From positions 1 through 31,656 of the forward strand of contig CBFGJG010000022.1 of assembly GCA_965649055.1 (NCBI GenBank): DNA of 31,656 nucleotides, read 5' to 3'. Both the position numbers and the translations under genes were made by a program. This DNA comes from a candidate division WOR-3 bacterium. Its GTDB lineage: Bacteria > Hydrothermota > UBA3072 > B12-G15. The notes under the pieces are model-generated. The model was not told the DNA's origin. It ran no database searches and was given only the letters and a program-made list of their open reading frames with translations. Within the stretch, counting starts at the first letter, position 1. The number at the start of each line of letters is the position of its first letter. Positions 1,323-31,300 of the stretch are shown here, piece after piece.

Positions 1323-3509
1323 TCAGTATAATTTTATCACCTTCCCTTTAATCTCCTGTTTTCCTGTCTTAAGAATATAGAAATAAATCCCCTTAGGACT
1401 ATCTTCCCCGAAAATAATATTTAGAATTCCATTACCTTTCTTTATAAGTAAAGCCCTACCAGAAGTATCAACTATCTTAAATTCATATTCTCCCTTTATT
1501 TTCCCAACAAAAATAACATAATTCTTAAAAATATTTGAACTTATGTTAAAATACTCAACAATATTTGTATCAGGAATATTAACCAGTGATGGAATAACAA
1601 CCTGTTTAATTATGATATCTTCACCAAACTCAAGTCCATTCCTGTAAAACCTGAATGTATCCTGAACAAAAGTAGTTTCCTGAACAAAGGGTGCTCTAAG
1701 AATAGCATATCTATAAAAAGTCTGATTAGGAAGACCATCATAACCTGTTGTTATAGACTTATTTCTGTCTTCCCATGTTAATGAATCATAGAATGGTGAA
1801 TTTAATGAATATATGTATGTTTTATCATCGAATGGGCCAAAACCCGTGTTTTGAACCTTTATCTTTACTGTGAATGTATCAAGTGAAAACACCGTATCAC
1901 CATATTCTAAAGATACAATATCCGCATCATAATCATTTGAATCTTCCGGGAAAGGGATAATCCTAAGATAATTCAAACTGGACCAACCTGTTGTATGTGT
2001 ATCAATTGGTGGAATATATATTTTAGCCCACCCATTATATATTGAATCAACAACAAAAACTTGACCATATGCTATTCTGGTTATGATTGAATAACCAGTT
2101 CCAGGACCTTCACGAACATTAAGCAATGATGCTGTAACACGGACTAATGTATCACCTGTTGAACCTTTCAGATACTGATAATTTATACCATCGCCTCCCC
2201 AAACATATGCATAATAAGCACCACTATCCGAAGGAAAATATATTTTATACCAGTTGTTGAAAAATTGGAATGCTGAAAATTTTTGCCCTATATTTGAAAC
2301 AGAAAGTATCTTCCAATCAGTCCCCGGACCTTCACGAACATTCAGTTCATTCACATTTACCTTAACAACAAAATGTCTTAAAGGTGGTTCAACCCAGAAA
2401 ACACTGTAAATAGAATTCCATACATCATCGTAACCATCATCATAACCCAGAGCCCAGCAACCAGAACCTTTTAAAGAACTATCCCTTGCCTGTGTAAATT
2501 TTAGAAAAAGAGAGAATGAATCATCATACCAGCACTGGTGCCAACCATCACCATCAACATAATATGTATAATATGGTGTTAAAGAATATGTATCCCATAA
2601 TCTCCCGTAAATTCCAGCATTAACTATAGCATTCTTCAATAAAACTGCATCCCCTGAACCCCTTGTAGAAGAACCTATAGATGAAGATGTTGTAGGCCAG
2701 TCAAAACCATAATATGGAAGACCTAAAATCAGTTTTTTTCTATCAGCACCATAACTGATATATGATTTTATTGTTGATGAAGTTGCCCATGAACCCCAGA
2801 ATCCACTTGGGATAGCTGGAGAAACCGGTCCTGCAACTGATGAACCTGAATAATGATAATCATACCCCATTATAAATAAACCATCTGAATGTGAAGAAAG
2901 ATATGCATAATCATAACCTGGATACCATGGTGGAACAGCAGGCATTGCAATATAAAGTTCTTTTCTTCCATCAGGATGATTTAAAAGAACATAGTATAAA
3001 TCATTTATGAATTTTGAGAAACTATCCTTAACCGATGAAGTAACAAATTCAAAATCTATATTCACACCATCAAGACCATAATTTGATACCATCTGTGAAA
3101 TTCCTGATATTGCATTCTGTCTTGAAGATGCTTTATTCAGGAATTTTGTCACATTTGAACTACCAAACAGAGTAAATGTCATATGAACTTTAACACCCCT
3201 TTCGTGTGAAAGGGAATAAAGGTAAGTGAATCTGCTTGAATTTGGTATTGAACCAAGATTTCCAAGTGTATCAATAGAGACAGAAAAATATGCGATATGT
3301 GTTAACAGATGAAATCTGAAATTAGCATATGCATCAGTACTTATCCAGTACGGACAATAACCGTAAAAATCAAATAACAATCCTTTTTTTTCTTTTAAAG
3401 GCGTTATCTTATGCGGATAATATGAAAAATCAGCATCTTTTAAATGATTAAAATATTCAACTGAATGAACACCTTCAAATTCACTTATTAAAAACAAAAA
3501 ATATATCAT
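1323..3509 (-). CDS. Secreted glycoside hydrolase family 18 with two SH3b domains, an Ig-like domain and a T9SS-type-A-like C-terminal domain
   Basis: GH18 motif DGVNIDFE, MGYDY, KLILGLPYYG, WALG; SH3b repeats LNVREGPGT (x2); C-terminus KGIYFYILK...GKVIKLY. Confidence 0.85.
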   Translation of the reverse strand: MIYFLFLISEFEGVHSVEYFNHLKDADFSYYPHKITPLKEKKGLLFDFYGYCPYWISTDAYANFRFHLLTHIAYFSVSIDTLGNLGSIPNSSRFTYLYSLSHERGVKVHMTFTLFGSSNVTKFLNKASSRQNAISGISQMVSNYGLDGVNIDFEFVTSSVKDSFSKFINDLYYVLLNHPDGRKELYIAMPAVPPWYPGYDYAYLSSHSDGLFIMGYDYHYSGSSVAGPVSPAIPSGFWGSWATSSTIKSYISYGADRKKLILGLPYYGFDWPTTSSSIGSSTRGSGDAVLLKNAIVNAGIYGRLWDTYSLTPYYTYYVDGDGWHQCWYDDSFSLFLKFTQARDSSLKGSGCWALGYDDGYDDVWNSIYSVFWVEPPLRHFVVKVNVNELNVREGPGTDWKILSVSNIGQKFSAFQFFNNWYKIYFPSDSGAYYAYVWGGDGINYQYLKGSTGDTLVRVTASLLNVREGPGTGYSIITRIAYGQVFVVDSIYNGWAKIYIPPIDTHTTGWSSLNYLRIIPFPEDSNDYDADIVSLEYGDTVFSLDTFTVKIKVQNTGFGPFDDKTYIYSLNSPFYDSLTWEDRNKSITTGYDGLPNQTFYRYAILRAPFVQETTFVQDTFRFYRNGLEFGEDIIIKQVVIPSLVNIPDTNIVEYFNISSNIFKNYVIFVGKIKGEYEFKIVDTSGRALLIKKGNGILNIIFGEDSPKGIYFYILKTGKQEIKGKVIKLY

Positions 3510-3515
3510 ATTTTA

Positions 3516-3543
3516 AAAATATTTAAAATTTTTATAATGTCAA
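3516..3543 (-). promoter_or_regulatory. Sigma70-type promoter for GH18 gene (TTGACA-N16-TATTTT), predicted leaderless
   Basis: -35 at 3543-3538, -10 at 3521-3516, ATG begins 7 nt downstream at 3509; no SD. Confidence 0.6.
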
Positions 3544-3611
3544 TTGATAAATGAAAGGTTTCAGGTCTTGAGATTTGACAGAATAATGTATAAGTTTTAA
3601 AAAGAAATCAT

Positions 3612-3651
3612 TTGCAAATTTTTGAACCCTATTTAAAATAAAAAAAAGGAG
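3612..3651 (+). promoter_or_regulatory. Promoter TTGCAA-N16-TAAAAT plus SD AAGGAG for the M28 peptidase gene
   Basis: -35 at 3612-3617, -10 at 3634-3639, AAGGAG at 3646-3651, ATG at 3657. Confidence 0.5.
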
Positions 3652-3656
3652 TGTTT

Positions 3657-6542
3657 ATGTTAAAAAGATATTCTATAGTTTTTTTTATCTTTGGTTTTTT
3701 TCTTTATGGTGAATATCTTACAAAGGTGAAACTTGATAACAGGAGGTTGGAACCATTCTTCTTAAAGAATATTTCTGTTATTAAGGACTTATACAATTAT
3801 GCACTTGTGATTGTTGATGATAATGAGCTTTACAAACTTAAAAAAATGGATTATGAGATTCTTGATACTATCAGAGATACTGCATATTATCTTGTTAAGA
3901 CAAAAAATCCTGTTGAATTATCAGATTACGGGAAAATACTTATGAAAGACAGGGATATTTATATCTTAAAAATTCAAGACGAAAAGATTGCATTCAAATT
4001 AAAAGAAAAATACCTCATTCATAAATTAAGATTAATTCCTATTGTTCAATCTAAAGATAAATTTAATATTCAATTTAAATATAATCCGTATATACAGGAG
4101 ATTGTAAATAATGTGAATCCTGATACAGTTCTGAGTTTTGTTCGTAATCTACAAAATTACAAAACAAGGTATTCAACCCATGACTCCTGTTTTAAAGCAG
4201 CATTCTGGATAAAGGAGAAATTATATGAGTATGGATGTGATACTGTGATATTGCAATACCATACAGCAGGTCATTCTCCAAATGTTATTGGTGTAAAATA
4301 TGGGACAGTTTACCCATCTAACAAATATTCAATAATATGTGGGCATTTTGATTCCTATTCAAATTACATACCAAATTTAGCTCCCGGTGCAGACGATGAT
4401 GCAAGTGGTATTGCAGGAATCCTTGAATGTGCAAGGGTTTTGAAGGATTACAGGTTTGAATACACAATAAAATTTATAGCATTCTCGGGCGAAGAATTCT
4501 GGATGCTTGGAAGTTATTACTATGCACAGATGGCAAGGAACCAGAATGATTCAATCATTGCTGTCATAAATGGTGATATGATTGGTTATGCAAATTCTTA
4601 TCCAGAATCTATAGATGTAATTGGTAAAATATCAGACCCTTCCTGTGAATGGATTGTTGATTTCTATATTAACTGTGCAAACTCATATACAAACCTTAAA
4701 ACATTAAAAATGTTGCTGCCAACATCCCCGGCCGACCAGGAAGCCTTCTGGGATTATGGATATGCAGGGATTTTACTCATAGAAGATGAAGATGTCTGGG
4801 GTGGAACAAATCCTTTTTATCACACACTCGGTGATACAATAGGTGGTGGATACAATGATAATCTATTTGCAACAGAAGTTATAAAAGCTGAGATTGCCAC
4901 TATTGTTTCTTTATCAGATATAAGTTATTCACCGTATTCACCTGAAAAACCGATATTGTTCCAACCATTTGATTGTGCAAAAATCTCAACAAATTATCCT
5001 GAATTTATCTTTAAATCAAAAGACCTTCAAAATGACCAAATACAGTATGAAATTTTTATTGATGATAATCCCGAATTTTTATCGCCTGAAATCATCCTAA
5101 CATCAGTATATCAAAGTGATTCTATTGTAAAATACGATATAACATTCCCACTGGAAGATAAGAAGATATATTTCTGGAAGGTTCAATGCAAAGACCCTTC
5201 CGGAACAAATCTCTGGTCTAATTTTTCTGATATATATTCTTTCACAATAGATACATCATTAAAAAATACATGTTCTTTCTTTCAGCATAATTCATTCCAG
5301 TTTTTAAAAAACTCATTTTATAATACTAAAATTTTTGGGGATAGTGTTGGAATTGAACCTTATGGATACATATACGATACACTTTTATACGAAGATTTTG
5401 AAGGTTCTTTCCCATCCAGCTGGAGTATTTACGATGGTAATAGTGATGGGATATACTGGAATAATGGAACAACAAATGATATTGGAATATTTACACCACC
5501 GAATTACAATTCAAAATATGCATACTATTCAGATGATGACGCAGGTTATACAAGTAATTCAGCAGAAGAAATAATATCACCAAAAATATACATTCCACAG
5601 GGTTCTTTTGAGCTTGTTATTATATATGATTTTGGGATAAAGATAAGGGAATCCGGTGAAAAGATGATATTAAAAACAAAAAAATTCAATAATAGCTGGT
5701 TAAACTGGATAAACAGATATTCGCATTATTTTAATTCATCTTCAGGAACATTCATTTATCAAATCCCTTCAAATTATTTCCCGATGGAATCTTTGCAATT
5801 AAAATGGTCATACACAGATGCTGGAACAAGTAATCACAGAGGATATGCGTGTGGAATAGACAATGTAACATTATTAAGAAAAATACCACAAGCGATTAAT
5901 TATGCTGAAATGATAACGAAAGAAATTTCGTTTGAAGAATTGAATTTTTTAGATGGAAGAGAATTATGGGGAGATTTAATATGGGAAAAGAAAAGCCTTG
6001 ATGATTCAATCGGTATTAAAATAGAATACTATGATGGTTCTGAATGGTTATCTGTCCCTGATGAATTAATACCCGGAAACTCCAATGGAATATATTCAGA
6101 TAAAATTAGTGATACAATCTCTTTAAATCCACTTCCCACTGATATTTTTAATAAAATCAGGGTAAAGGTATTATTCAAAAGATATTCGCAAGGTGTAAAA
6201 TCACCTGAAGAACCATTACTTTTAAGCCTTGAAGTTGGTAATATATCAGGATATGTAGGGATAAAAGAGAAGAATGAACAAATTTTTTCAATATCAAATA
6301 ATATAGTTTATTCAGGGATTGATATATCTTTTTATTTGAAAAAAGAAGGATTTGTTTCAATAGACCTGTTCGATATAACCGGAAGAAATATTGAAAAAAT
6401 ATTAGAGAATAAAAAATACAGTAAAGGGATACATAAATTAAATATGAGTCTTAAAGATAAAAAAATTAAAAACGGTGTTTACTTCATCGTATTCAGCGCT
6501 GAAAATGAAAGAATAATCAGAAAGATAATTATGATAAGATAG
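3657..6542 (+). CDS. Secreted M28 family Zn aminopeptidase with Ig/FN3-like and beta-sandwich domains and a T9SS-type-A-like C-terminal domain
   Basis: GHFDS, PGADDDASG, FSGEE, NGDMIG, PFYHT (all M28 metal ligands); signal peptide; LFDITGR...NGVYFI...RKIIMIR. SD spacing favours ATG 3657 over GTG 3651. Confidence 0.88.
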   Translation: MLKRYSIVFFIFGFFLYGEYLTKVKLDNRRLEPFFLKNISVIKDLYNYALVIVDDNELYKLKKMDYEILDTIRDTAYYLVKTKNPVELSDYGKILMKDRDIYILKIQDEKIAFKLKEKYLIHKLRLIPIVQSKDKFNIQFKYNPYIQEIVNNVNPDTVLSFVRNLQNYKTRYSTHDSCFKAAFWIKEKLYEYGCDTVILQYHTAGHSPNVIGVKYGTVYPSNKYSIICGHFDSYSNYIPNLAPGADDDASGIAGILECARVLKDYRFEYTIKFIAFSGEEFWMLGSYYYAQMARNQNDSIIAVINGDMIGYANSYPESIDVIGKISDPSCEWIVDFYINCANSYTNLKTLKMLLPTSPADQEAFWDYGYAGILLIEDEDVWGGTNPFYHTLGDTIGGGYNDNLFATEVIKAEIATIVSLSDISYSPYSPEKPILFQPFDCAKISTNYPEFIFKSKDLQNDQIQYEIFIDDNPEFLSPEIILTSVYQSDSIVKYDITFPLEDKKIYFWKVQCKDPSGTNLWSNFSDIYSFTIDTSLKNTCSFFQHNSFQFLKNSFYNTKIFGDSVGIEPYGYIYDTLLYEDFEGSFPSSWSIYDGNSDGIYWNNGTTNDIGIFTPPNYNSKYAYYSDDDAGYTSNSAEEIISPKIYIPQGSFELVIIYDFGIKIRESGEKMILKTKKFNNSWLNWINRYSHYFNSSSGTFIYQIPSNYFPMESLQLKWSYTDAGTSNHRGYACGIDNVTLLRKIPQAINYAEMITKEISFEELNFLDGRELWGDLIWEKKSLDDSIGIKIEYYDGSEWLSVPDELIPGNSNGIYSDKISDTISLNPLPTDIFNKIRVKVLFKRYSQGVKSPEEPLLLSLEVGNISGYVGIKEKNEQIFSISNNIVYSGIDISFYLKKEGFVSIDLFDITGRNIEKILENKKYSKGIHKLNMSLKDKKIKNGVYFIVFSAENERIIRKIIMIR

Positions 6543-6551
6543 AATCTTTCC

Positions 6552-6579
6552 TTGACATTAATCCAAAGAATATTAAATT
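6552..6579 (+). promoter_or_regulatory. Promoter TTGACA-N16-TAAATT for ADH/radical SAM operon, predicted leaderless
   Basis: -35 at 6552-6557, -10 at 6574-6579, ATG at 6586; no SD. Confidence 0.6.
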
Positions 6580-6585
6580 TTCTCT

Positions 6586-7575
6586 ATGAGAGCAATGGTT
6601 TTATATAAACAGGAAAATATAGAGAAGAATCCTTTAGCCCTAAAAGATATCCCTGAACCTGATATAAATGATAATGAAATAAGGATAAAAATAAAGGTAT
6701 GCGGTGTTTGCAGGACTGATTTGCACATTGTGGAAGGTGATCTTCCAGCTCATAAGTTACCTGTAATACCAGGTCATCAAATCGTAGGTTATGTTGAAAA
6801 AATCGGTAAGAATGTAAAAAATTTTAAGATTGGTGATAGGGCCGGAATACCATGGTTGAATAAAACCTGTGGGGTTTGTGAATACTGTAAAGAAGGAAGG
6901 GAAAACCTGTGTGATAATCCAAAATTTACTGGTTATGATGTTGATGGTGGATTTGCAGAGTATACTGTTGTTCATAAAGATTTTGCATATCATCTACCTG
7001 AAAAATATTCAGATATAGAGGTCTCTCCACTCCTTTGTGCGGGTGTTATCGGATACCAGACATTCAAAAAATCAGGTTTAAAGTCAGGGAAAATAGGACT
7101 TTTCGGATTTGGTTCTGCTGCACATATCCTAATACAGGTTCTTGTATATTTGAAATTTGATGTCTTTGTTGTCTCAAGGACTGAACATGAACTTGAACTT
7201 GCAAGAAGACTTGGTGCCTTCTGGACAGGTAAAATAGATGAACTTAAGGAAAAACTTGATGGTGTTCTTGTCTTTGCACCAAGTGGCGAACTTCTTGTAA
7301 AGGCACTTGAGAAGATAAAAAAAGGTGGAATAGTTGTTTCAGGTGGAATCTATGCAACACCACTCCCAGGTTTTGAATATAGTTACATATTCCCTGAAAA
7401 AACATTGACTTCTACAGCACATACGACAAGGGAAAATGTGAAGGAATTCTTAAATGTTGCAGATAAATTTAAGATAAAAACAGAGATAAATGAATATAGT
7501 CTTGAAGAGGCAAATAAAGCACTATATAATATAAAACATTCAAAGGTTAAAGGTTCATCTGTTTTAGTTATTTAG
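6586..7575 (+). CDS. Zinc-dependent alcohol dehydrogenase family protein
   Basis: CGVCRTDLH, PGHQIVG, structural Zn CGVCEYC...NLC, PLLCAG, GLFGFG Rossmann motif. Confidence 0.93.
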   Translation: MRAMVLYKQENIEKNPLALKDIPEPDINDNEIRIKIKVCGVCRTDLHIVEGDLPAHKLPVIPGHQIVGYVEKIGKNVKNFKIGDRAGIPWLNKTCGVCEYCKEGRENLCDNPKFTGYDVDGGFAEYTVVHKDFAYHLPEKYSDIEVSPLLCAGVIGYQTFKKSGLKSGKIGLFGFGSAAHILIQVLVYLKFDVFVVSRTEHELELARRLGAFWTGKIDELKEKLDGVLVFAPSGELLVKALEKIKKGGIVVSGGIYATPLPGFEYSYIFPEKTLTSTAHTTRENVKEFLNVADKFKIKTEINEYSLEEANKALYNIKHSKVKGSSVLVI

Positions 7576-7576
7576 A

Positions 7577-8848
7577 GTGAAGATACTATTAGTAAACCCA
7601 CCAATATATGATTTTTCTGCATACGATTACTGGATAAAACCCCTCGGTCTTTTATACATATCTTCAATCTTGAGGAGAAACAGTAATATAAATGTTAAAC
7701 TGCTTGATGTTATGGATAGACAGGACGAATTTTATAAAAATGTGAAGAGCGACGATTTTGGAAGGGGTAAATTCCATTATAAAAAAATACCAAAAATCAA
7801 TCTGTTAAAAGATATACCCTTTTATTTCAAAAGATACGGGATACCGGAAGAAATAATAAAAGATAGAATAAAGGAATATAAACCTGACTTTGTTCTTGTG
7901 ACAACCACAATGACTTACTGGTATTTAGGTGCAAAAGAAATACTTGATACTGTAAAGAAAATAGATGAAAAGATTCCCGTTTTTTTAGGCGGGATATACC
8001 CTACATTAATGTTCGAACATGCTTCAGGATTAGGATTTGACTTTGTTTTTAGAAATAAAGATATATTAAAACTCAAGGATATATTCGGGATAAATATTCC
8101 TGAAAACTTCTGTGATTATCCTGTTCCAGATTATTCGCATTATAAAATATTAAAATATGTTGCATTCACTACATCTTTAGGATGTCCTTTCAGATGCTCA
8201 TACTGTGCATCTTACAGGATTATTGAAAATTTTCAGTTCAAAGAACCTGAACAGGTTTTTGAAGAGATAAAATTTTATTATGAAAAGGGCGTAAGGGATT
8301 TTGTTATATATGACGATGCATTACTCTTTCCACAGGATAGGTTCATAAGCTCTTTTAAAGATGTGGGTGAAAAACTAAAAGGTGTAAGATTCCATACACC
8401 TAATGGTCTTCATGCAAGATTTATCGACCTTGAGATAGCAGAGATTTTAAAAAAATCAAATTTTCTGGAACCAAGGATATCACTTGAAACTATATATAAA
8501 GATAAACAATTGAAAACAGGTGGTAAAGTATTCACAGAAGAGTTTGAAGAGGCAATAAGAAGACTTGTTAAAGCAGGTTATAAAAAATCCGAGATTATAG
8601 CATATATTATTTTTGGTCTTCCTGATGATAAAGTTGAAGAATGCGTTGAAACTATGAATTATTTAAATGGTTTAGGTGTCAAAATCTATTTAAGTGAATT
8701 TTCACCAATTCCTGGTTCAGTATACTATGATGTTGAAGACCCTGTCCTATCTAATAACACTATATACCTTTATTATAAAAAAAGAGGAAAAGAACTCCAA
8801 TATTTAAAAGACTACAAGAACAAACTGAATAGAGGACTCAAAGATTAA
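7577..8848 (+). CDS. Cobalamin-binding-domain radical SAM protein
   Basis: KILLVNPP, KPLGLLYI, LGGIYPT, CPFRCSYC (CxxxCxxC), YDD, SPIPGS. Confidence 0.88.
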   Translation: MKILLVNPPIYDFSAYDYWIKPLGLLYISSILRRNSNINVKLLDVMDRQDEFYKNVKSDDFGRGKFHYKKIPKINLLKDIPFYFKRYGIPEEIIKDRIKEYKPDFVLVTTTMTYWYLGAKEILDTVKKIDEKIPVFLGGIYPTLMFEHASGLGFDFVFRNKDILKLKDIFGINIPENFCDYPVPDYSHYKILKYVAFTTSLGCPFRCSYCASYRIIENFQFKEPEQVFEEIKFYYEKGVRDFVIYDDALLFPQDRFISSFKDVGEKLKGVRFHTPNGLHARFIDLEIAEILKKSNFLEPRISLETIYKDKQLKTGGKVFTEEFEEAIRRLVKAGYKKSEIIAYIIFGLPDDKVEECVETMNYLNGLGVKIYLSEFSPIPGSVYYDVEDPVLSNNTIYLYYKKRGKELQYLKDYKNKLNRGLKD

Positions 8849-9573
8849 AGATTATTTATTATCCTGAATTTATGAATCCACTTTCCTTTTCTCTCGCGAT
8901 TAGGTATAAGTTTTATATAAAATTTTGGGAGGTATTCCTCATCTATATCAATATCTATTCCTGCACTGTAAAGGATGAAGGCAAGCCTTGCAATAAGACT
9001 TTTATCACCCATTCTTATTGAATATTTCAACATCCTGTCTATAGAAAATTTATCCTTACCTTCATTTATGATTCTTATAATCTCTTCTATCTCAGGTCCA
9101 TATTCCTGTAACATAATTGAATCAATAATAGCCTTTTCCGGTAATGCTATTTTTATACTCTTTTTTTCAACAATTTCGTCTGTAAAACCAAAAAATTTAT
9201 AAGATTTCATAAAAACATACTTAAAGATATAAGAATGGAATTTAAAAGATGCCTTTCTTTTTGGGGTAGCGAGATAAATCTCTTCTTCACTGTTTTTTAT
9301 AAATTTGTAAAATGAAAGAGCTGTCTTGAATGAAATATAAGAAGGTCTTATCGAGAAACATCCTATTGAAAGAGGGTCTTCTGCTCCTTCAAGGACATAC
9401 TTGCCTTTCTCAACTTCTTTTATTGCCCCTTCCCTCTTAAGCCTCAATATCACCTGTGCAGCATAATTCCTTTTAAGATTAAATATAGATGCAAAATCAT
9501 TAAGATCAAAAACACATATATCATTTTCTCTTAAATATTTTATTATGTCATTTAAATTCATTCTTTTACGCAT
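8845..9573 (-). CDS. AbiEi-family (type IV TA antitoxin-like) winged-helix transcriptional regulator
   Basis: N-terminal wHTH (RLKREGAIKEVEKGKY), PSYISFKTALSFY, KFFGF, PEKAIID, RLAFIL, typical of the COG5340/AbiEi family. Confidence 0.8.
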   Translation of the reverse strand: MRKRMNLNDIIKYLRENDICVFDLNDFASIFNLKRNYAAQVILRLKREGAIKEVEKGKYVLEGAEDPLSIGCFSIRPSYISFKTALSFYKFIKNSEEEIYLATPKRKASFKFHSYIFKYVFMKSYKFFGFTDEIVEKKSIKIALPEKAIIDSIMLQEYGPEIEEIIRIINEGKDKFSIDRMLKYSIRMGDKSLIARLAFILYSAGIDIDIDEEYLPKFYIKLIPNRERKGKWIHKFRIINNL

Positions 9574-9665: not shown

Positions 9666-12359
9666 ATGAAAGATAACAAGAATATTAAAGTTTTTTTAGA
9701 ATCTTTAATATCTTTTCTTCCAAGAAATTTTATAAAATACAAAATTTCATCTATTGAGAGGGACTCTTTCAATGCAATATTACTTTTTGCAGATATATCC
9801 GGTTTTACAGCTATGAGTGAAAATTTATCAAAATTAGGTAAAGAAGGTTCGGAAGAAGTGAACAAAATTATAAATAATTATTTCTCACCACTTATTGATA
9901 TAATATATAAACATGATGGTGATATAATTTATTTTGGTGGTGATGCATTCCTCGCATACTTTAGATATGATAGTTTAGAATCAACGGAAAATGCAATGTC
10001 AACTGCAAAGGAAATTTTAAACTTTGCAGAAGAAAACTCAAATGTTAATACAAAGAAAGGTATATTTAATATTAAACTTCACATTGGATTAAATAAAGGT
10101 AATGTTCATTATTTTGATTTAAAAAATACATATTTTATAGCAGGTGATACTATCAACGAACTTATGAGAATTCTTGATCTTGCAAGTGCCGGTGAGATAG
10201 TGGTTGGTGAATCTGTCAGGAAAGATTTAAAAAGTATAAGTTTTAAAGAAGTAAATGATGCCTATAAATATGTAAAAGATGATTATTCGGTGGAAAGTTA
10301 TTTTGGGAAAAAGGAACAGAAAAAATCCTCAAATGCTATTTCTTTAGAAATAATAAAAGAATATATACCAGATTGGCTTTTAAAAGGGATACAGATTAAA
10401 CCATATTTTGATTACAAAGATGGTGAACATAGAAAGATAACTTTTTCATTCATCCATTTCTCTGGAATATCCTATGATAAAAATGATTCAGAACAATTGT
10501 TAAAAAAATTCTACATGATTATAAAAGAAACAGCAGATAAATATGATGGCTGGATAAATCGTCTCGATGTTTATAAAGATAGTGAAAGGATGATTGTAAT
10601 ATTCGGTTTTCCAAATGCTTATGAAGATGAGGAAAAAAGGACGATGATTTTTATAAATGAACTTGTTAATAACCCTGAAATTAAAAATATTAAAATAAGG
10701 GCTGGTGTTAACTCAGGATTCGTATTTGTCGCACCCCTTGGTAGTAAAACCCGTAGAGAATATACAATGATAGGAGATGCAGTTAACCTTTGTGCAAGGA
10801 TTGCAGCATCTGCAAAGGCTGGAAATATATTAGTGACAGAAGATATATACAATAAAACTTATGATTTATTCGAATATGAACCTCTCGGGTTGATGGAATA
10901 CAAAGGGAAAAAAGATAAAATACCTGTATTCAAACTAATAAGGAAAAAAGACATTTATTATAAAAGGTCAAAGAAATGGATTGGAGAAAGTGAAAAGATA
11001 GTAGGGAGAAAAAAGGAATTAAACACCATAAAAAAAATTGTTGAAGTTTTAACCAGGTCAAAAGGACAAATTATAAGTATTGTGGGAGAGCCAGGGATTG
11101 GAAAATCCAGACTTGTGGAAGAGGTAGTAAAAATATGTAAGGAAAAAGATTTTAAAGTATATACAGGCGATTGTATATCTTATGGCAATTCATTTACTTA
11201 TTATCCTTTTATCAATATTTTAATGGATTTATTTTCAATATCTCAAAATGACGATATGGAATCAAGAAAGAAAAAAATTAGAGAAAAATGTGAAAAAGTA
11301 AATAAGGAACTTATTAATTGGTTACCTATCATTGGGAATATAATAGGATTAGAATTTCCTGAAACAAATTTAACAAAATATATCGACCCAAAAACAAAAA
11401 AACAAAGAATAAATGAGATAATTCTCGAACTTATAAGATTTGAATCAAAGATACTTCCTGTAAATATAATAATTGAAGACCTACACTGGTCTGACTCTGT
11501 ATCAATGGATGTTATTAACTATATCAGTAGAAATATTGAAAATGATAGAATAATGCTAACATTGGTTTACAGATCGCTTAACACAAAAGAAGAATTTATG
11601 GAAAAAAAATGGTCAAATAAATTAGAACTTGCCGAACTGAAAAATGAAGAAATAAGTGAGCTTATTGAAAATTTGTTAAATATAAAAAATATACCTGAAG
11701 ATTTAAAAAATATCATATTCGAGAAATCACAGGGTAATCCTTTTTATGTTGAAGAACTTATAAAATCATTGATAGAACAGGGTAATATTATAGAAGAAAA
11801 AGACGGATGGAGTTTTAATATTGAAACAAAGGATTTGAAACTACCTGATACAGTTGAATCTATTATACTCTCAAGGATTGATAGACTTGACTTTCAGGAT
11901 AAAAATATATTACAGATTTCATCTGTTCTTGGTAATGAATTTGACGAGTTTTTAATAAAAGGAATATATGGAGATAAAGAACAGCTTAATAAATCATTGA
12001 AGAACCTTCAAATACTTGATTTATTAAGGAAAGAGGCAGGAGAAGGTGGAATAAAATTTTATTTTAAACATATTCTCACAAGGGAAGTTGCATATGGAAC
12101 ACTTTCCTATGCAAGAAAAGAAGAACTCCACAGAAAAATAGGCGTTTACATTGAAAAAGAAATGGAGGAAAGAAAAGATGAATTTTTACCTCTTCTTTCA
12201 TATCATTTCTATATGGGTAAAGATTATGAAAAATCGTTAATATATTCAGTTCAGGCTGGTGAAAAAGCAAAGAAGGTTTATGCAAATGAAGAAGCAATTG
12301 AGTTCTTTACAAGGGCAATAGAATCTTTTGAAATGCTTGAAAACCAGAATATTGTATGA
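9666..12359 (+). CDS. Tandem class III nucleotide cyclase domains plus STAND-class AAA ATPase (soluble adenylyl cyclase-like), ending at the start of the TPR region
   Basis: C1: FADISGFT, FGGDA; C2: IFGFP, EYTMIGDAVNLCAR; IVGRKKE, Walker A GEPGIGKS, Walker B IIIEDLHW, GNPFYVEE, FKHILTREVAY. Confidence 0.92.
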   Translation: MKDNKNIKVFLESLISFLPRNFIKYKISSIERDSFNAILLFADISGFTAMSENLSKLGKEGSEEVNKIINNYFSPLIDIIYKHDGDIIYFGGDAFLAYFRYDSLESTENAMSTAKEILNFAEENSNVNTKKGIFNIKLHIGLNKGNVHYFDLKNTYFIAGDTINELMRILDLASAGEIVVGESVRKDLKSISFKEVNDAYKYVKDDYSVESYFGKKEQKKSSNAISLEIIKEYIPDWLLKGIQIKPYFDYKDGEHRKITFSFIHFSGISYDKNDSEQLLKKFYMIIKETADKYDGWINRLDVYKDSERMIVIFGFPNAYEDEEKRTMIFINELVNNPEIKNIKIRAGVNSGFVFVAPLGSKTRREYTMIGDAVNLCARIAASAKAGNILVTEDIYNKTYDLFEYEPLGLMEYKGKKDKIPVFKLIRKKDIYYKRSKKWIGESEKIVGRKKELNTIKKIVEVLTRSKGQIISIVGEPGIGKSRLVEEVVKICKEKDFKVYTGDCISYGNSFTYYPFINILMDLFSISQNDDMESRKKKIREKCEKVNKELINWLPIIGNIIGLEFPETNLTKYIDPKTKKQRINEIILELIRFESKILPVNIIIEDLHWSDSVSMDVINYISRNIENDRIMLTLVYRSLNTKEEFMEKKWSNKLELAELKNEEISELIENLLNIKNIPEDLKNIIFEKSQGNPFYVEELIKSLIEQGNIIEEKDGWSFNIETKDLKLPDTVESIILSRIDRLDFQDKNILQISSVLGNEFDEFLIKGIYGDKEQLNKSLKNLQILDLLRKEAGEGGIKFYFKHILTREVAYGTLSYARKEELHRKIGVYIEKEMEERKDEFLPLLSYHFYMGKDYEKSLIYSVQAGEKAKKVYANEEAIEFFTRAIESFEMLENQNIV

Positions 12360-13396
12360 ACAGTAAACAAAGAAGGGAACTATATATAAAAGCATTAAAT
12401 AATTTAGGAGAGATTGAATATATACTCGGGGAATATGAAGAATCAATAAAAAGATACGAAAAGGTCATTGAAATATGTAATAATAATCCTTATATCATAC
12501 ATGATGCAATAAGTCAGATTTGTATTAATCTAATATTTGGTAAAGGAGAAAATAATAAGGCAAAGGATATAATATTAGAGGTATTGAAAAAATTGGATAA
12601 GGATAAGGAAAAAAAATTATATATAAGATTTATAAATCTCCTCGGTATTATAGAAAGAAGAAAAAGTAATTATGATGATGCAGTAAGATATTTTAAAGAA
12701 GCATTAGAATTAACAGAAGAATCAAATAATAAAAGCGATATAGCTGTAATGCAATGTAATCTTGCATTAGTTGCTTATAACAAAGGCAAATTTGATAATG
12801 CGATTGAATTGTACCAAAAAGCATTAGAACTTGTTAATGATTCCGACGACCTTATAGGTTTGGGAATAACATACAATAATCTTGGACTCGTATATCAGGC
12901 AAAAAATGAATTTGATAAGGCACTTGAATATTATAATAAAACCTTAAAAATTATGCAAAAGGTTGGTTATAAAAGTAATTTTGGACATACGCTTGGAAAT
13001 ATTGGTGCAGTTTATAAAGATAAAGGAGATTATAATAAGGCACTTGAATATTATAATAGTTCACTTGAAATAGCAAAGGAATTGAACGATATTAAACAGA
13101 TTGGAATTGTTTACTCTCTTATTGGTGTTGTTTATCTAAAATTAAATGAACTTGATAAGAGTCTTGAAAATACAAATAATGCATTGATAATCTACGATAA
13201 AATAGGGGATAAAAGGCTGATTGCAACCTGTTATAAAACATTAGGTGAAATTTATATTAAATCAAAAAAATATAAAGAGGCATTAGAGAATCTTAAAAAA
13301 AGTGAAGAGTTGTTTGTAATGATTGGGAACAATTTAGAAATTGGAAATATTCAAAATCTCATTAACGAAATTGAAAAAATAAAAAATGTTGATTGA
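12356..13396 (+). CDS. Tetratricopeptide repeat protein (40-aa period)
   Basis: Repeated NNLG.VY...G.YDKALEYY..AL units; ATGA overlap with the cyclase gene. Confidence 0.92.
   Translation: MNSKQRRELYIKALNNLGEIEYILGEYEESIKRYEKVIEICNNNPYIIHDAISQICINLIFGKGENNKAKDIILEVLKKLDKDKEKKLYIRFINLLGIIERRKSNYDDAVRYFKEALELTEESNNKSDIAVMQCNLALVAYNKGKFDNAIELYQKALELVNDSDDLIGLGITYNNLGLVYQAKNEFDKALEYYNKTLKIMQKVGYKSNFGHTLGNIGAVYKDKGDYNKALEYYNSSLEIAKELNDIKQIGIVYSLIGVVYLKLNELDKSLENTNNALIIYDKIGDKRLIATCYKTLGEIYIKSKKYKEALENLKKSEELFVMIGNNLEIGNIQNLINEIEKIKNVD
12915..13058 (+). repeat. Identical 24-nt direct repeat at 120-bp spacing within adjacent TPR units
   Basis: ATAAGGCACTTGAATATTATAATA at 12915-12938 and 13035-13058. 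Confidence 0.85.
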
Positions 13397-14684
13397 AAAA
13401 GAAAAACTGTTCGTTAATTCACTTCTAAAAAGGGCAGAAATTTACTCATTCACAGGAAAGAACGAAAATGCAATTGAAGATATAAAAAAAGCACTTGACT
13501 TTTCTATTAAAAGAAAGGATAGATATTTAGAATCAGAATGCAGACTTGCATTTGCAATATTACATAATAAAATTTGTGAATATGAAAAAGTAATTGAATT
13601 TGCAGATGAATCATTAAAATTCTTTGAGACTGTTAAAGACTTTGAAAAAATAGAAGAAATAATGAATACAATGGGATATGCATATCAGTATTTGGGAAAT
13701 ATCGACAAGGCATTTGAATGTTATAAAAAAGGACTGGAAATAAATGAAAATACCAAGAATTTTATAGATCTTTGTGAATCACTTAACAATATAGCAAATC
13801 TTTATGCCACACAAGGAGATTATAACAAGGCACTCGAATTCCACATGAAGGCATTATCTTTAAGGGAAAATATTGGAGATTTGAATGGAATTGGATTCAG
13901 TCTTCACAATATAGGTTCTATGTATTATATGTTAGGAAATTACAATTTGGCACTTGAATATTTCGAGAAAGCTTTAACAATCAGGAAGAAAATTGGATTT
14001 AAACAAGGTATAGGATACACATTAAGCAATATTGGTGCATTAAATCTTGTTCTCGGAAATATGAAAGAGGCAATTGAAAACCTCTCAAAAGCACTCGAAA
14101 TACATGAAGAAGTTAATGACCTGTCAAGCGAAATATCAACATTAAATAATATAGGTATGGCTTATCAAAATTTAGGGAAAATAAATTTAGCCTTTGATAT
14201 TTTTGAAAAGGCATTAGGGATTTCAAAAAAAATAAAAGATATAAATTTGGAAGGATATGTACTTTTGAATTTAGGAAAGATTTGCATGGAAAAAAGGAAA
14301 TTTTCAATTGCAAAGAAATACTTAAATGATTCTCAGAGGATCTCTGAAAAAATAGGTAATAAAAACCTGAAAATAAGAGTGCTTCTAAGCCTTTTCTCTC
14401 TGGAATTAATAAAAAGGGAGATACAGGAAAAAATTAGTGATGAAGATATTAAAGATTTAAAGAAGGATTTTGAATCCTTAAGAAAAGAGGTAACAGAAAC
14501 AGGGTCTAAAATTGTCAATGCAGAAATTTTACTGTTTGAAGCAAGAATTGGTATTCTTGAAGGAAAAATAGATTTTGCAAAAAAGAAATTTGAAGAAGGT
14601 ATAAAAATTTACGAAAGACTTAAAAGGAATTTTGAAGCGGCTAAAGCATACAGAAATTTTGGAAAAAGCATAGAGATGAGATAG
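13386..14684 (+). CDS. Tetratricopeptide repeat protein; TAG at 14682 may be premature (frame stays open to 14777)
   Basis: Repeated LNNIG..Y...G.Y..ALE...KAL units; overlaps the upstream TPR gene by 11 nt. Confidence 0.9.
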   Translation: MLIEKEKLFVNSLLKRAEIYSFTGKNENAIEDIKKALDFSIKRKDRYLESECRLAFAILHNKICEYEKVIEFADESLKFFETVKDFEKIEEIMNTMGYAYQYLGNIDKAFECYKKGLEINENTKNFIDLCESLNNIANLYATQGDYNKALEFHMKALSLRENIGDLNGIGFSLHNIGSMYYMLGNYNLALEYFEKALTIRKKIGFKQGIGYTLSNIGALNLVLGNMKEAIENLSKALEIHEEVNDLSSEISTLNNIGMAYQNLGKINLAFDIFEKALGISKKIKDINLEGYVLLNLGKICMEKRKFSIAKKYLNDSQRISEKIGNKNLKIRVLLSLFSLELIKREIQEKISDEDIKDLKKDFESLRKEVTETGSKIVNAEILLFEARIGILEGKIDFAKKKFEEGIKIYERLKRNFEAAKAYRNFGKSIEMR

Positions 14685-14814
14685 GATAAACTTAAAGATT
14701 TCATTGATCATAAAAAGTATTTAAAAAAATCCGAAGAATATCTTTCAAAGATAAAAAATCAAAAACAACCAAAATAGATATAATATAAAATATTTTTGAA
14801 GGGGATTAAAGAAA

Positions 14815-14842: not shown

Positions 14843-16404
<1,562 letters not shown>

Positions 16405-25396: not shown

Positions 25397-28300
25397 TTAT
25401 ATAATTTTTAAGACCTTAAATATCTTATCAAACTTATTAATTTTTAAATGTATAAAATATATTCCTTGATTGAGCCTATCCAGTTCAAACTTGTAATAAC
25501 CTGGTTTCAAAATATCCTTTTCTTCCATTATTTTTCTACCTGTTATATCATAAATTATTAAGGAAAAATCTGATTTACCTTTAAGTGCTAATTCTATGTA
25601 AGTTTCTTTCTTAAATATTATTTCCGGTATCTTTATTATATCTTCTTTTATTTCCGGGATATTTGTCCCAGGATATAGATATATAAAGCCTGTATCAGGA
25701 TATCTTGCCATATTATCCGCAATATCCCAAGATTTAAAGAAAAATGCAACACTTTCGGAGAACATTGGAATAGTGTAAAAGAATGTATCATAATGGACAC
25801 TTTCTGCATTTGTTGAGTATGAAAACTTAGGAATAAATAGAGAATCCCATTTTATTCCAAGACCATCATAAATCCTTAATCTAAAAATATAATTATCAGG
25901 GAAATAAAATGTCGTTGTATCTGAAAATCTTGGTGGGATGTTATCGTATATCACTGTGTACGGACTGCTAACAAATTCCCTCAATGGTTCTTTAAGAATT
26001 GTTCCTATGAAGTAATTATAAACCATTTCATTCTGAATTGTTTTATCAACAAATGAAGTATCATTTATTGTGGTTAAAAGTTTCGAATCATTTTTTGAAG
26101 ACCTATATATCTTATAACCTGAAACAACTGACGAAGTATCATATCTTATTTTTGGTCTTATAAGGATATTCCCATATATCAGGTTTAACCATTCATTATT
26201 CTTTTTATAATATGAATAAACTGGTATCTCACCATCCCCAAAGAAACTAACCATTGAAGGTCTTAATAATATCTTCAATGTCTCATCTATCTCTTTACTT
26301 AAAAGAAATTCAAACCACCCTGTTGTTTCAGGTGGAACATTAAATGAAAATGTTTCGTTCTCTATCTCAAGATTTAAAATTGATATATTGTTTTCAGGGT
26401 TTTTTAGATAAATATCAATATTTGAAAGGAGCCCTTTCCCTCTTGGTAATCCCATCTTGAGCATCAATGTCTCTTCTTTTATCTCATAAAATGGGACACC
26501 ATTATCCATCGCAAATCTCTCTTCTGGATAACTCCATACAAAACTTATTGAAGTATCTGAAATGGTATGTGAGGATATTGATGTCTTGAGCCCTTTAAGA
26601 ATGAATAAATCCCTTGTTCCAAAAGGTGGTTCCCTTCTCATATTTCCTTTAATATCCTTAAAAATCCCATAGAATTCAATTTCATTATTCCCATCAAAAT
26701 AACCAAATTTATATAGCAGTGTTGTGTCATCTATTCTCTCACCCGATATTTTATTCCATTCGTTTTCCCCTTTCGTCCTTAGATATAATGTGTCATAGAA
26801 TTGGGATGCTTCTCTTATAAACAATCTTATCTTTAATGATTCATCCTCATAAATCCTTTCAGGATAAAGAAATGAAACTATCGGTGGTGTTGTATCTATA
26901 CTTATAATATTTATCCATTTCCCAGAAGAGAAGGAAAGAATAGAATCTGCATTTATCGTATAATTTAAAAACCAGTTCCCACCTTGAATATTATTTAGTG
27001 GATATGAAAAATTCAGGAAGTTATTTCCCTTACCCAATGATAAAATCTCGTCCCTAATACTAATAGTATCATCTTTTATAAGTTCAAAATAGATATATGT
27101 TTTATCAGGGACCATATCCGGGATAAATACATTCATACTTATCCTCAATGAATCATCAGGATAGATTGTATCTGGTTTCACTATAAAATTCTTAATATTT
27201 AAGTCTATCCCCTTTATTTCTATATCAAAAGAACCTTCTTTTAATATTTCACTATAAAAGAATTTATAATTCACATCATAAAATCCACTTATACCTTTAT
27301 TATTCAAAATCTTGTAAAATGAAGTATCACCAGTTATATCAAGGATAGATGAATCATCATCCCAGAAATATGTATTTAATCTTCCTGTTGTGTTCGATGA
27401 AACAATGAATCTTATTGTATCACCAAAATTATATCTTATTTTTTCAGGATATAATGCAAAATTTGTATCTCCACTAAACAATGGATATGTCCTCAAAAGA
27501 TACCCATTCATTGATGGCCAGAGATATATACCATAAAAGAGATTCACAGGTAATGTATCAATGACAAAATCAAATCTAACTATCTTTTCGGGTGATGGAA
27601 ATTCTTTAATTAATGTATCTAATGATTTAAAAATCCTCACTGAATCACATCTTTCTGTATCATTATCAGGTATAATAATCTTGAACTGATAGTATTCATA
27701 AGGAGGGAATATTGTATCAGACCATTCGGTGATTGGTTTCCCTTTCCTATTGCATTTTCTGAATTTAATTATTTTTTCAGATTCAGGATAGATTATACCT
27801 GAAATTATTCCTGTTTCATTCGTTTTAAACAAAGGAGAAACATAAATACCTGATGATTCTGGTTTTTCAATCCTTAATCCTGTATCAATAAGCACATTTT
27901 TTATAAATCCTGTCACAAAGAGGAGTGTATCATCTTCAAAGTTTGGTGTTGAAATAGTTGCAAGGATATTGGGATTCAATTCATTTAGATTCTTTATCTT
28001 TAGGCTGAATCTCACAGTATCCTGTATTGAATAGAATCTCTTATCAGTGAATGGAAGTATAGAAAGTTTGTATCCTTCAAATCTCACTGGCTTAAAAATA
28101 ATCCTATCATTTATATCAAATTGGATATAATATATCCCTGAACCAATGTAATCGGGATTGAAAAGTGTTAATGTATCCACAATGATTGAATCAGTTCTAA
28201 TATTAAAATTAACATTTGCTAAGTCATCAAACCATCTTATCTCACAATTCCCATCCCCTCTTGAAGTCCCTTTATTTTTTATCATTATTGGAACATTAAG

Positions 28301-31300
28301 TGTTGTATCATCAGAATGAACATAGAAAGTATCTTCTGTTTCAACGAAGTAATTTGGTGAGAATCTTCTCTTCCAGTCCTTTGAGAATATACAAGCTCTA
28401 TCTATGTTTTCAATCCTTATATTTATATTATGTTCCCCTTTCTCCCATTCAGGTAAGACTGAAAATAAAAGTGTGTCATATTGTGAGATATATCTTGATA
28501 TAGTATCATAACCTGCTGGATGTTTCAGAATGAAATGGAAGAATTGTGAGTTTGAATATGGAAGGTAAACAGGAAATTTGAATTTAACATAGCCTTCTTC
28601 ATCAGCACCATCAACAAACATTGTATCAATCACTACATTATTATTAATGTTGAGATAAAGGAAAGTTAAGGATGAATCAAGAATCATCCCTGATTTTTCC
28701 TCTTTTAATATTGATAAAATACTATAAATACCTGCTTTATTTATTGTAATATTCACCCTTCCTATCTTTTCATCTTTCTCAGGAACAGTATCAATGACTG
28801 AATAATATCCTAATGTATCTGAATTTATGTCGATTATGAAGATATCTGTCCTATATGATGTCAAAATATTAGAAGGATTTATTATCTTAAAATCAAACAA
28901 AAAAGAACCAACATCATCATAGATTGATGGCTCTGTTTCTATATTTCCACCACCATTAAACTTCATATTAAAAACATAATCTTTACTTTCAGTATATGTT
29001 GAAAGTGTGAGGAAAAGATTTGAATTTTCAGGGAAATGCGGTTTAAGAAAATGTTTTAGAGCAATCTCATCATTCGCATTTATAAAGAATGTATCGCAGA
29101 ATGTATCATTCTGGAAGACCATTCTTGAGAATATATTACCTTCACCGAAAACCGTTCTTAGTTTTAATTCCAAATTAAAACTATCATAATTGAAACAATC
29201 CTGTGAAATGGATACAGGGATTATATCAATCTTCACTGGTGAGATAATCAAAGAATCAAAGACAGTATCTACATCATTATAGAACATACCAAAAAGAGAT
29301 AAGGTATCCTCTGCATAAGTCTTAAAATGATAGTTCTTTATTTCAGCAGAATCAATGGATGAAGTATCACTCATTATAGTATCATTATTAATAGTGAACA
29401 ATATATTCCCATTTTTAGGAAGATATGTGAGATTCCAAAGTTTTAAATCAATATCAAGGGAATCTCCTTTAAATGGATTATGGGTTAAAGGTGATACCTT
29501 TATACCAATACTATCAGAGACAATATCAAAGAAATAGAAAGATTTTATATTAAGAGGGTAATTATCCTTTCCAAGTAATGATACAGAAGCAGCATATTTT
29601 CCAGGTTCAGGATGATAAAAATCAAAAGTTACAGTCGTATCCCAAGAAGAATTAGGCCCAAATCCATTTTTCCCTTCCCATCCTGTTATCCCTTGAATAT
29701 CCATATATGTATATTTAGCTTCAAAACTATAAAGTTCAGGTGAGAGATCTTGAACATCGTTCCTTAAAAGATTAAAAGAGAATGCAAAGCCATTACATGT
29801 TTCTATTATTAATGAAAGAAGGGAATCAATTGGATACCATTTCTCCAATTCAGCATAACCATATTTCCCCCCATATAAATATGGCATAAAATAGTCCCTT
29901 ATTGAACCAAGATTTTCATTCTGATTTACCTTATAATCAATAAATTTCACATTATTCCCAACATCATTAAAATAATGATAATATATTATCTTCCCAAATA
30001 TTCCACCAACAGGTAGATATTTTGTCACAAAAACGTCAATAGTGTTGATTGTATCTAATGTGAGTGAATATAATATTGGGTCTTTTTGTCCTTCCAAAAT
30101 AAAATCAATTGCTTCACCTAATGACCAATCTAAAATCAACTCCATCTTATTCCCATTCTTTAAATACCTTTCATATTCACCGTCTGTTTTTAATGTCCAT
30201 ATTGTATTCAATGGATCAACGAAGATAAGTTCATAAAAACCATCCCCTGCTTCAAAGATTGTATTCCCTGAATTATCCATCTTTATAAGTCTTCTTTTAT
30301 CATAATCAGAGACCCAGAGATATCCTTCTTTATCAAATTTTATATCAATTGGTGAAACAAGACCTGTATCCCTTATAACATCAATCAAATTGAAATTTTT
30401 ATCAATTTTTAGGATCCTTGAATTCCCTTTCTCAACAAGGAATAAATTACCATCTTTTGAAGTAATCCCAAAAGGTTCAAGGTAGTTAAAAGAAGAATCT
30501 TCAACGACACCTAAACTCCCTGTCTCACTATATTCAGAGTTTGTTGGCTGGTATCTTATCTTATATATCCTATTTCCATTCGTTGTTATATAAATATAGC
30601 CATCCAAAAATGTCATACTATGAATAGAAGAAACATTTGAAATAATTAATGTATCAATGAAACGACCTCCACCATAATATGGGAACTTCTTCCCAAGGCA
30701 GACCTTTAATGTATCTCTGAATGCAAATGCATAAAGAAGGTTATCTTTATCAAGTAAATATGTCCTTGAATTTATAAAATTCTGATTAAATTTTGAACCT
30801 ATTTTTTTCGTGTTAAGAGATTTCATAAGAGGTGGAACCCAGAATTCATAATCATCCCAGAATTCAAGTCTTGTTGTATCATCAAGATAAAATTTTCCCT
30901 CTTCATTCCTTACCCCATAAAGATAAATAACTCCTTGTGTTAATGTATCAAAATATACTGTATCTACCATTGTGATATACTTCCCTATTTTGTATTCAAA
31001 TGTTCTCGCATCAGTTGGGTATATTGATGAATTGTTTGAATAATGAATATTCAAAGGGATATCTTCACCTTCAATGAATAAATCTCTTCCAAGGTCAAGG
31101 TGTACTGAATCCTCAGGACCATTTTTGTAAAATATAGCTCCGTTTATTGTATCTTCTTTTCCTGTACCTAATTTATAATGTATCAACTCAAAAGGGATAT
31201 AAGAATTCTTTGGGAAATAATAAGAAGGGAAAGATAATTCCTTTATCTCAAATGGTTCAAAATGTAGTGAACCTGAACCTCCGTATGTATTTCCCTGCTT

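Follow-up and report, generated by a model that had tools for sequence, protein, structure and literature searches.

How might a signalling receptor operate if its switch and its sensor are made as separate proteins? This question is raised by positions 9666-14777 of a 31,656-nucleotide (nt) stretch of DNA (contig CBFGJG010000022.1; hereafter the window) from a 2.08-Mb, 85-contig metagenome-assembled genome of a candidate division WOR-3 bacterium, where three co-directional open reading frames (ORFs) lie on the forward strand. ORF1 (9666-12359; 897 amino acids (aa)) encodes a cyclase-STAND core, in which tandem class III cyclase domains are followed by a STAND ATPase and, at the C-terminus, by helices resembling tetratricopeptide repeats (TPRs); its product ends in YANEEAIEFFTRAIESFEMLENQNIV. 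ORF2 (12356-13396; 346 aa) encodes a TPR module that is collinear with the TPR region at the C-terminus of fused relatives, and ORF3 (13386-14684; 432 aa) encodes a separate TPR subunit of the type found 3′ of split cores in relatives. The ATG of ORF2 lies on the TGA of ORF1 in an ATGA stop/start overlap (12356-12359), which is 1 nt shorter than the in-frame fusion in relatives, and ORF2 and ORF3 overlap by 11 nt; this three-gene layout is exactly that described in a first-pass annotation of the sequence, which had proposed that one core pairs in trans with alternative TPR sensors. We consider it likely, with some real doubt, that the locus is a soluble-adenylyl-cyclase-like switch, in which a C1-C2 class III cyclase and a STAND (NLR-type) ATPase receive their TPR sensor in trans.

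Is the separation of core and TPR genes peculiar to this window? In a database, a search listed 72 clusters that are ≥41% identical to ORF1, of which 63 are core-only proteins of 865-966 aa with the cyclase and AAA_16 families and no TPR family; six are TPR-fused (1226-1459 aa) and three are fragments. ORF1 ends 11 residues past its FFxRAIE-type last TPR-like helix, and an FFxRAIE-like motif pattern matched 54 of the 63 core-only clusters, which end 7-26 residues after the motif. Gene order was compared in 80 species-representative loci, found from an alignment of the relatives (ORF1 alone found none in genome contigs). The core frame ends within three residues of the ORF1 end in all 17 loci at 41-56% identity (L035-L051), and TPR genes lie directly downstream on the same strand in 12 of these: one gene in L035, L043, L045, L046, L047 and L049, two in L050 and L051, two and a fragment in L036, three and a short ORF in L037, broken TPR pieces in L038 and a complex arrangement in L048. 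One more split locus runs to its contig end. The number of downstream TPR genes per split locus varies from 0 to 4, and the gaps between core and TPR genes are short or negative, L051 also showing an 11-nt overlap. Because of these 63 core-only clusters and 12 loci with adjacent TPR genes, the general separation of core and TPR is, judged by sequence comparison, a stable gene architecture and not an assembly artefact. The survey of related genomes suggested in the first-pass annotation has in this respect borne it out, in that separate core and TPR genes are kept in a large clade with a variable number of TPR genes. The distribution of the split is patchy: close matches of the split type were found in six of 40 relatives' genomes (G024, G025, G027, G031, G033 and G039) and in none of the three same-family genomes searched. 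Relatives below about 41% identity (Chloroflexota, Verrucomicrobiota, proteobacteria and others) have core and tail, the latter 150-479 aa long, in one chain.

What accompanies the core in other relatives? In a sister clade at 37-38% identity (L031, 4025-8004; L032, 1178-5184; L033, 1095-5152; also L056, L058 and L064), the cores are 955-963 aa long, have a different end, and are followed, after a 4-nt overlap, by a 371-389-aa membrane-type protein and no TPR gene. The membrane-type protein of L031 matches Wzy_C (O-antigen ligase-like), and its N-terminal sequence is common to the other sister-clade copies; it seems to be a conserved partner of another type for a core of this kind. Four loci from one family of relatives carry a 544-572-aa TPR protein with a signal-peptide-like N-terminus directly upstream of the split core (L027, 596-2293; L028, 9722-11440 on the reverse strand; L030, 561-2195; L039, 395-2092), and three of the four (or their duplicates) have no downstream TPR gene or reach the contig end. 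In L048, a 1269-aa protein (3315-7124) whose C-terminal part is TPR-like is encoded between the split core and the TPR subunit gene.

What kind of switch does the core encode? In Pfam, ORF1 matches Guanylate_cyc (PF00211) in two tandem stretches (86.4 bits; cut-off 21.9), AAA_16 (65.9 bits; cut-off 32.6) and NB-ARC (28.1 bits; cut-off 23.5). Its best solved relative is the catalytic C1-C2 portion of human soluble adenylyl cyclase (sAC), ADCY10 (4clf, E 1.6e-23), with which both cyclase domains align. The first, C1-like domain (9759-10301; about aa 32-212, Pfam stretch 38-212) has both metal-binding Asp residues, D43 and D93, in FADISGFT and GGDAF, which lie opposite FVDISGFT and AGDAL of sAC. 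In the second, C2-like domain (10353-10943; about aa 230-426), FIHFSG stands where domain 1 has FADISG, so that the first metal Asp is replaced, and N374 and R378 are retained. D43, D93, N374 and R378 are invariant across 37 relatives, and we take them, from the sAC alignment and general knowledge, to be the metal Asp and transition-state Asn-Arg residues. From its sequence, this C1-C2 residue pattern is that of a pseudo-heterodimer formed by one chain, with a single active site. The Lys within VYKDSER of ORF1 aligns with the Lys of sAC MFDKGCSF, which suggests ATP as the substrate, and ORF1 has a Tyr at the position aligned with the Lys of sAC KFAGD, presumably a bicarbonate-site residue. The STAND nucleotide-binding domain (10998-11546; aa 445-627, with AAA_16 at 445-627 and NB-ARC at 454-500) contains the Walker A motif GEPGIGKS and the Walker B motif IIIEDLHW; G474-K480 of the former and IIIED of the latter, with D605, are invariant in the alignment of 37. 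The final ~45 residues of ORF1 form TPR-like helices that are among the most conserved parts of the protein in the same 37-row alignment, and the helices at aa 855-891 (12228-12338), which are nearly invariant, are the predicted docking surface for a TPR subunit. Sensor repeats C-terminal to the nucleotide-binding oligomerisation domain (NOD) on the same chain are absent in ORF1, and the TPR arrays are those of ORF2 and ORF3.

Are ORF2 and ORF3 two successive parts of one sensor, or two versions of the same part? Both contain TPR_12/TPR_1 arrays (Pfam) and match TPR_MalT (57.9 bits for ORF2, 46.4 bits for ORF3). They are 31% identical over 327 residues (E 2e-31) with near-equal numbering from about residue 64, and out-of-register alignments reach only E 0.11 or worse. 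ORF3 opens with a capping motif, L..sL..RaEiY.f.G....Ai.D (13398-13526; aa 5-47), a predicted plug onto the core, of which R16, G24 and D32 are invariant among 14 TPR subunits; NCBIfam TPR_END_plus matches residues 16-40 (53 bits; cut-off 32). A profile of this N-terminal motif gives ORF3 65.3 bits, but ORF3 is one of its training sequences; the N-termini of TPR genes outside the training set reach 32.6 (L036_9441), 37.1 (L038_7698), 36.4 (L048_7313) and 24.6 bits (L037_8325), internal TPR repeats score at most 11.3 bits, and ORF2 matches weakly, at 7.8 bits over residues 6-43, in the same register. In the fused P0026, P0064 and L052-L055, the profile match (12-34 bits) directly follows the core end. 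Because the N-terminal motif of the TPR genes directly follows the core end in fused relatives, ORF2 and ORF3 are, by their alignment, equivalent and not consecutive parts of a fused homologue, namely the stretch right after the core end. Collinearity and the motif profile hence decide a point on which the first-pass annotation had made its proposal depend in favour of equivalence, and of the N-terminal likeness that it had seen between the two TPR proteins, the common register and the strong motif of ORF3 stand, whereas the resemblance of ORF2 is weak. In a quick tree of TPR modules, which is poorly resolved elsewhere, ORF2, 67% identical to the P0006 tail, groups with the fused tails of P0006, P0004 and P0007 (Shimodaira-Hasegawa-like approximate likelihood ratio test, 100); ORF3 falls in the other half of the tree, where several relatives have their one downstream TPR gene, to which it is ≤29% identical. 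A search of a large protein collection for ORF3 homologues returned only generic TPR proteins (≤38% identity, partial length), and an ORF2-type alignment run against metagenome contigs, with search patterns that are generic TPR sequence (KALEYY...), gave matches at ≤39% identity only, which do not bear on close ORF2-type loci or on the presence of an ORF3-type gene beside fused relatives.

Could ORF3 nevertheless stack on ORF2 rather than on the core? TPR arrays are established to stack end to end, the gene order core-ORF2-ORF3 is fixed, and some fused relatives have longer TPR regions (P0026, 1459 aa; several Chloroflexota with tails of ~450 aa), so that ORF2 on the core and ORF3 on the free C-terminal end of ORF2 might form one long superhelix like the 560-aa TPR region of P0026. 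We regard this serial arrangement as improbable: ORF3 carries the motif that follows the core end in fused proteins, ORF2 ends where the fused relatives end, loci with a single TPR gene leave an ORF3-type protein only the core to dock on, and structure prediction places ORF3 with high confidence on the core itself. For this prediction, core residues 445-897 (37-row alignment) were modelled with ORF3 (14-row alignment). The interaction prediction score from aligned errors (ipSAE) was 0.65 (0.64, 0.66 and 0.65 in the individual runs), against 0.00 for the best of three controls; the mark applied to this score is reached by 116 of 157 solved complexes and two of 215 mismatched pairs. Between runs, ≥97% of the contacts are the same, and the predicted local distance difference test (pLDDT) of the partner is ≥86. 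In the model, ORF3 residues 5-23 lie on core residues 855-891 with conserved faces on both sides, and the ORF3 loops at 127, 163-168, 202-207 and 242-244 contact the nucleotide-binding region at 548-584, 619-623 and 643, which resembles the closed state of a STAND protein. The prediction supports binding of ORF3 to the core, and the complex modelling proposed in the first-pass annotation has, for this pair, passed its controls.

How would such a system work? In the WOR-3-type lineage, the core|TPR split is the prevailing and evolutionarily stable form, with one to four TPR genes after the core. Most of these TPR genes open with one capping helix that, in fused relatives, is the direct continuation of the last helices of the core. 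ORF3 would be the trans subunit: its N-terminal helix (L8, F9, S12, L13, R16, I19 and Y20) is predicted to plug onto a docking face formed by the hydrophobic side of the core's last helix (A877, I878, F881, A884, I885, F888 and L891), and its TPR loops would then rest on the nucleotide-binding domain, in the manner of an autoinhibited STAND protein. On the model of MalT, AfsR and Apaf-1-type STAND proteins, a ligand on the TPR module would release the ATPase domain, and this release would lead to ATP-dependent oligomerisation and a rise in cyclase output, probably cyclic AMP (cAMP). The genome encodes six cNMP_binding proteins, all on other contigs, which would read the signal. ORF2 is the second of the two paralogous TPR modules; in the closest relatives it belongs to the same polypeptide as the core, and here it has apparently been cut off again by a one-base frame change that left the ATGA at a pre-existing Met codon. 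Two equivalent modules and one docking site would give a core with two alternative inputs. We infer ligand sensing, cAMP as the product, the alternation of the two modules and the interchangeability of ORF2 and ORF3.

How recent is the break between ORF1 and ORF2? The nearest relatives of ORF1 are fused across this junction: P0006 (78% identity to ORF1, 1238 aa), P0004 (68%, 1230 aa), which is a paralogue on contig C62 of the same genome, and P0007 (59%, 1226 aa). ORF1 and ORF2 together are collinear with these three proteins, ORF2 ending where they end; the junction can be aligned residue for residue with P0006 over 18 residues, and ORF2 starts at a Met that P0006 has internally. Compared with the in-frame version, the window lacks exactly one base, with GTATGAAC where the fusion needs GTNATGAAC, and no homopolymer lies at the break. 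These alignments mark the break between the two genes as a change of frame by one base that is recent and, among the nearest relatives, confined to the window. The first-pass annotation had itself named fusion in close relatives as evidence against a genuine split, and for this junction fusion is what we found; its claim that core and TPR are separately encoded holds for a large clade, but not for the ORF1|ORF2 split as a conserved feature. The locus also holds a caution: one of its two apparent splits goes back to a single-base change in a gene whose nearest relatives are fused. Programmed −1 frameshifting that would join ORF1 and ORF2 was considered and rejected; no slippery heptamer was seen, on reading, before the stop (CAGAATATTGTATGA).

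In a core tree rooted on the clade at 37-38% identity, ORF1 pairs with P0006 (support 1.0), then with P0004 (0.862) and then with P0007 (1.0), and this fused subclade is nested among split cores; P0026, P0075 and L052/L054 are other fused forms at separate places in the tree. The most parsimonious history of these sequences is an ancestrally split clade in which several re-fusions took place at the same hinge, followed here by a fresh re-split through a one-base deletion; three independent fusions are an alternative history. We speculate, as a tentative extension that may well prove wrong, that one docking site on the last TPR-like helices of the core is contested by several paralogous, fast-diverging TPR plugs, through which a single cAMP switch is re-addressed to different ligands, and that the hinge is repeatedly fused and split, the fresh re-split in the window turning a sensor in cis into a second sensor in trans.

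Might the locus simply be a gene in decay, or one assembled wrongly? A fused cyclase-STAND-TPR gene could have been broken by a one-base deletion or a low-coverage error, with ORF2 untranslated or the locus being lost, and ORF3 an ordinary neighbour. This explanation draws on the fused state of the three nearest relatives and the nesting of the window inside their subclade, on the single missing nucleotide, on a read depth of about 5, on the early end of ORF3 relative to most relatives, and on the fused 68% paralogue in the same genome, which could cover the function. Both frames are otherwise intact over 897 and 346 codons, however, the stop of ORF1 falls where 54 split relatives stop, the ATG of ORF2 lies in an ATGA overlap that is a classic arrangement for coupled translation, and L036, L037, L050 and L051 have a core with two or more separate TPR genes. 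The sequence of the junction was also recovered independently: in Logan contigs of run X1, probably the source sample, both junctions are reproduced with 0 differences and 0 gaps at a depth of 4.6-5.1, and these contigs, from an independent assembler, span 11900-12395 and 12374-13452. Because they show no difference and no indel, an assembler artefact at the ORF1|ORF2 junction is unlikely. Of the other runs, X3 holds an 87% relative whose contig ends at 12343, short of the junction, and X2 and X4 hold small pieces only; none bears on the junction. We consider decay or mis-assembly unlikely overall, though still to be reckoned with.

Several points weigh against the trans-sensor switch that we favour. 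None of the nearest relatives has the ORF1|ORF2 split of the window, so that this split may represent a fresh lesion rather than an adapted state, and at a depth of only ~5 it may be a low-coverage error or a minority allele. No adjacent TPR gene is present in four of the 17 split loci (L039, L040, L042 and L044). The TPR-module tree is a quick tree in which nine of 20 inner branches are unresolved. The products of ORF2 and ORF3 are deduced from their genes, and the binding of ORF3 to the core is a prediction; in such predictions, two parts of what is one continuous fold in relatives will often pass through their likeness to the fused structures, and here the controls were unrelated proteins, not decoy TPR proteins, and the alignments were built by us. 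ORF3, finally, is without the C-terminal ~45 residues that nine of 13 aligned relatives have. Its stop is the TAG at 14682-14684, and position 14777, with which the first-pass annotation had closed the locus, is the end of a second in-frame stop 31 codons on. The 30 codons between them (14685-14777 including the second TAG; ..HKKYLKKSEEYLSKI..) may be a lost C-terminal tail of ORF3, although this is uncertain: reading through the TAG raises the tail-profile score by 3.4 bits (from 16.7 to 20.1), which is within the range of 200 shuffles, and the whole-sequence score of the read-through is 28.5, against a shuffle mean of 24.5 (standard deviation 1.7, maximum 32.3). A nonsense mutation at the TAG is possible.

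How does the locus compare with known systems? Single-chain cyclase-AAA_16/NB-ARC-TPR proteins ("class 3 adenylate cyclase/TPR repeat protein", 1100-1500 aa; P0004 and L079-L082 of Chloroflexota/Herpetosiphon) have the same domain order, belong to the same family and are 27-68% identical to ORF1 over the whole core. In contrast to these, this locus and 63 of the 72 close clusters have the TPR region in a gene of its own, often in several tandem paralogous copies. ADCY10 in its full-length form (sACfl), both of whose cyclase domains align with ORF1, is likewise one polypeptide. A STAND/P-loop region has been predicted after C1-C2 of sACfl, and the accessible part of that report identifies no regulator specific to full-length sAC (PMC12802110). 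Both sACfl and the single-chain cyclase-STAND-TPR proteins are already known. STAND regulators of the MalT/AfsR type have a NOD followed by a helical-repeat sensor, as do the proteins of this locus, and the TPR region of AfsR matches in NCBIfam below the cut-off. In a model of MalT, autoinhibition is brought about through contacts of the sensor and arm with the NOD (PMC4381067, in the part accessible). Unlike in MalT and AfsR, the output here is a cyclase and not DNA binding, and the sensor is a separate protein. In the NAIP-NLRC4 inflammasome, several sensors, which are complete NLRs, feed one oligomerising partner. The multi-TPR loci suggest a similar logic of one core and several sensors; this is a functional analogy only, and the sensors here consist of TPR arrays alone, which would fill in the fold of the core itself.

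Does the locus instead serve defence? An Avs- or Pycsar-like receptor, in which exchangeable TPR subunits recognise phage proteins and trigger a cyclic-nucleotide defence, would share with Avs and other bacterial NLR-like anti-phage STAND proteins the STAND ATPase, the TPR-type sensors and the logic of effector, NOD and sensor. In PADLOC, both cyclase domains of ORF1 are matched by PycC profiles (best E 6.1e-19), and ORF2 and ORF3 by a TPR model; the divergent gene upstream is AbiEi-like; and the TPR subunits vary in number and diverge fast, ORF3 being ≤38% identical to anything found, against 55% identity of the core to its split relatives. The PycC matches, however, reflect generic class III cyclase homology; PADLOC gave nothing else for ORF1 and only generic TPR/C3a198 for ORF2 and ORF3, with no match to an Avs, bNACHT or effector model. 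To our knowledge, Avs-type systems have been described as single polypeptides and PycC proteins without a STAND module. There is no defence-type effector and no defence island here, nor, in contrast to Pycsar, a cNMP_binding effector gene in the window. The neighbours are housekeeping genes (radical S-adenosylmethionine (SAM), Zn-dependent alcohol dehydrogenase, 16S rRNA, PriA) that are not conserved between loci, and a genome with at least eight paralogous cyclase/STAND-TPR genes is typical of signal-transduction expansion. The anti-phage alternative raised in the first-pass annotation, and its comparison with Avs in particular, finds no support in this evidence; a cAMP signalling switch is more likely, and we give a role in defence little credence.

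In the usual view, a STAND/NLR protein is one chain whose sensor keeps the ATPase closed. Our search, outside which most subscription journals lay, found no published account of a cyclase-STAND protein that is stably divided into a core gene and one or more TPR genes. Stably separate genes for sensor and switch would offer a natural system for trans-autoinhibition, sensor exchange and the minimal docking interface, all of which are hard to test in fused proteins. The core is related to human soluble adenylyl cyclase, and a separable bacterial sensor could guide work on the full-length form of that enzyme.

Do the flanking sequences tell how the three genes are expressed? A promoter/terminator scan found 36 sites in the window against 34.1 ± 5.4 in shuffles, which is no excess, and no terminator on the forward strand between ORF1, ORF2 and ORF3. 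No Shine-Dalgarno-like motif precedes ORF2 or ORF3, but as the pattern gave none for 12 of the 17 window ORFs with upstream sequence in all, this absence is uninformative. An alternative genetic code was ruled out, as TAA, TAG and TGA each terminate long ORFs in the window.

What lies around the locus? None of six neighbouring window proteins was matched in 21 related loci. A 242-aa ORF on the reverse strand (8845-9573), divergent from ORF1, has a full-length PADLOC AbiEi match (E 1.5e-46), no Pfam or NCBIfam match and no AbiEii-type partner after it; a perfect TTGACA-16-TATAAT lies on its strand at 9607-9580, and the last 4 nt of the ORF are shared with the end of the radical SAM gene. The upstream genes at 3651-8848 on the forward strand encode an M28 peptidase that carries a type IX secretion system (T9SS) sorting domain, an alcohol dehydrogenase of the Zn-dependent type and a radical SAM protein with B12-binding domain, and have no conserved link to the cyclase locus. 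Between ORF3 and a PUA/SAM methyltransferase gene, the reverse strand carries a complete 16S rRNA gene (14844-16404; 1521 bits), inside which a listed ORF (14912-15307) is spurious; no 23S gene adjoins it, and linkage of the rRNA genes seems to be absent. On the reverse strand at 25397-31654, a giant ORF (>2085 aa) extends past the end of the window. Elsewhere in the genome, at least eight further cyclase and/or STAND-TPR paralogues, all of them fused, have open frames of 1073-1385 aa on contigs C1, C5, C9, C48, C61 and C62, which is a large share for a genome of this size.

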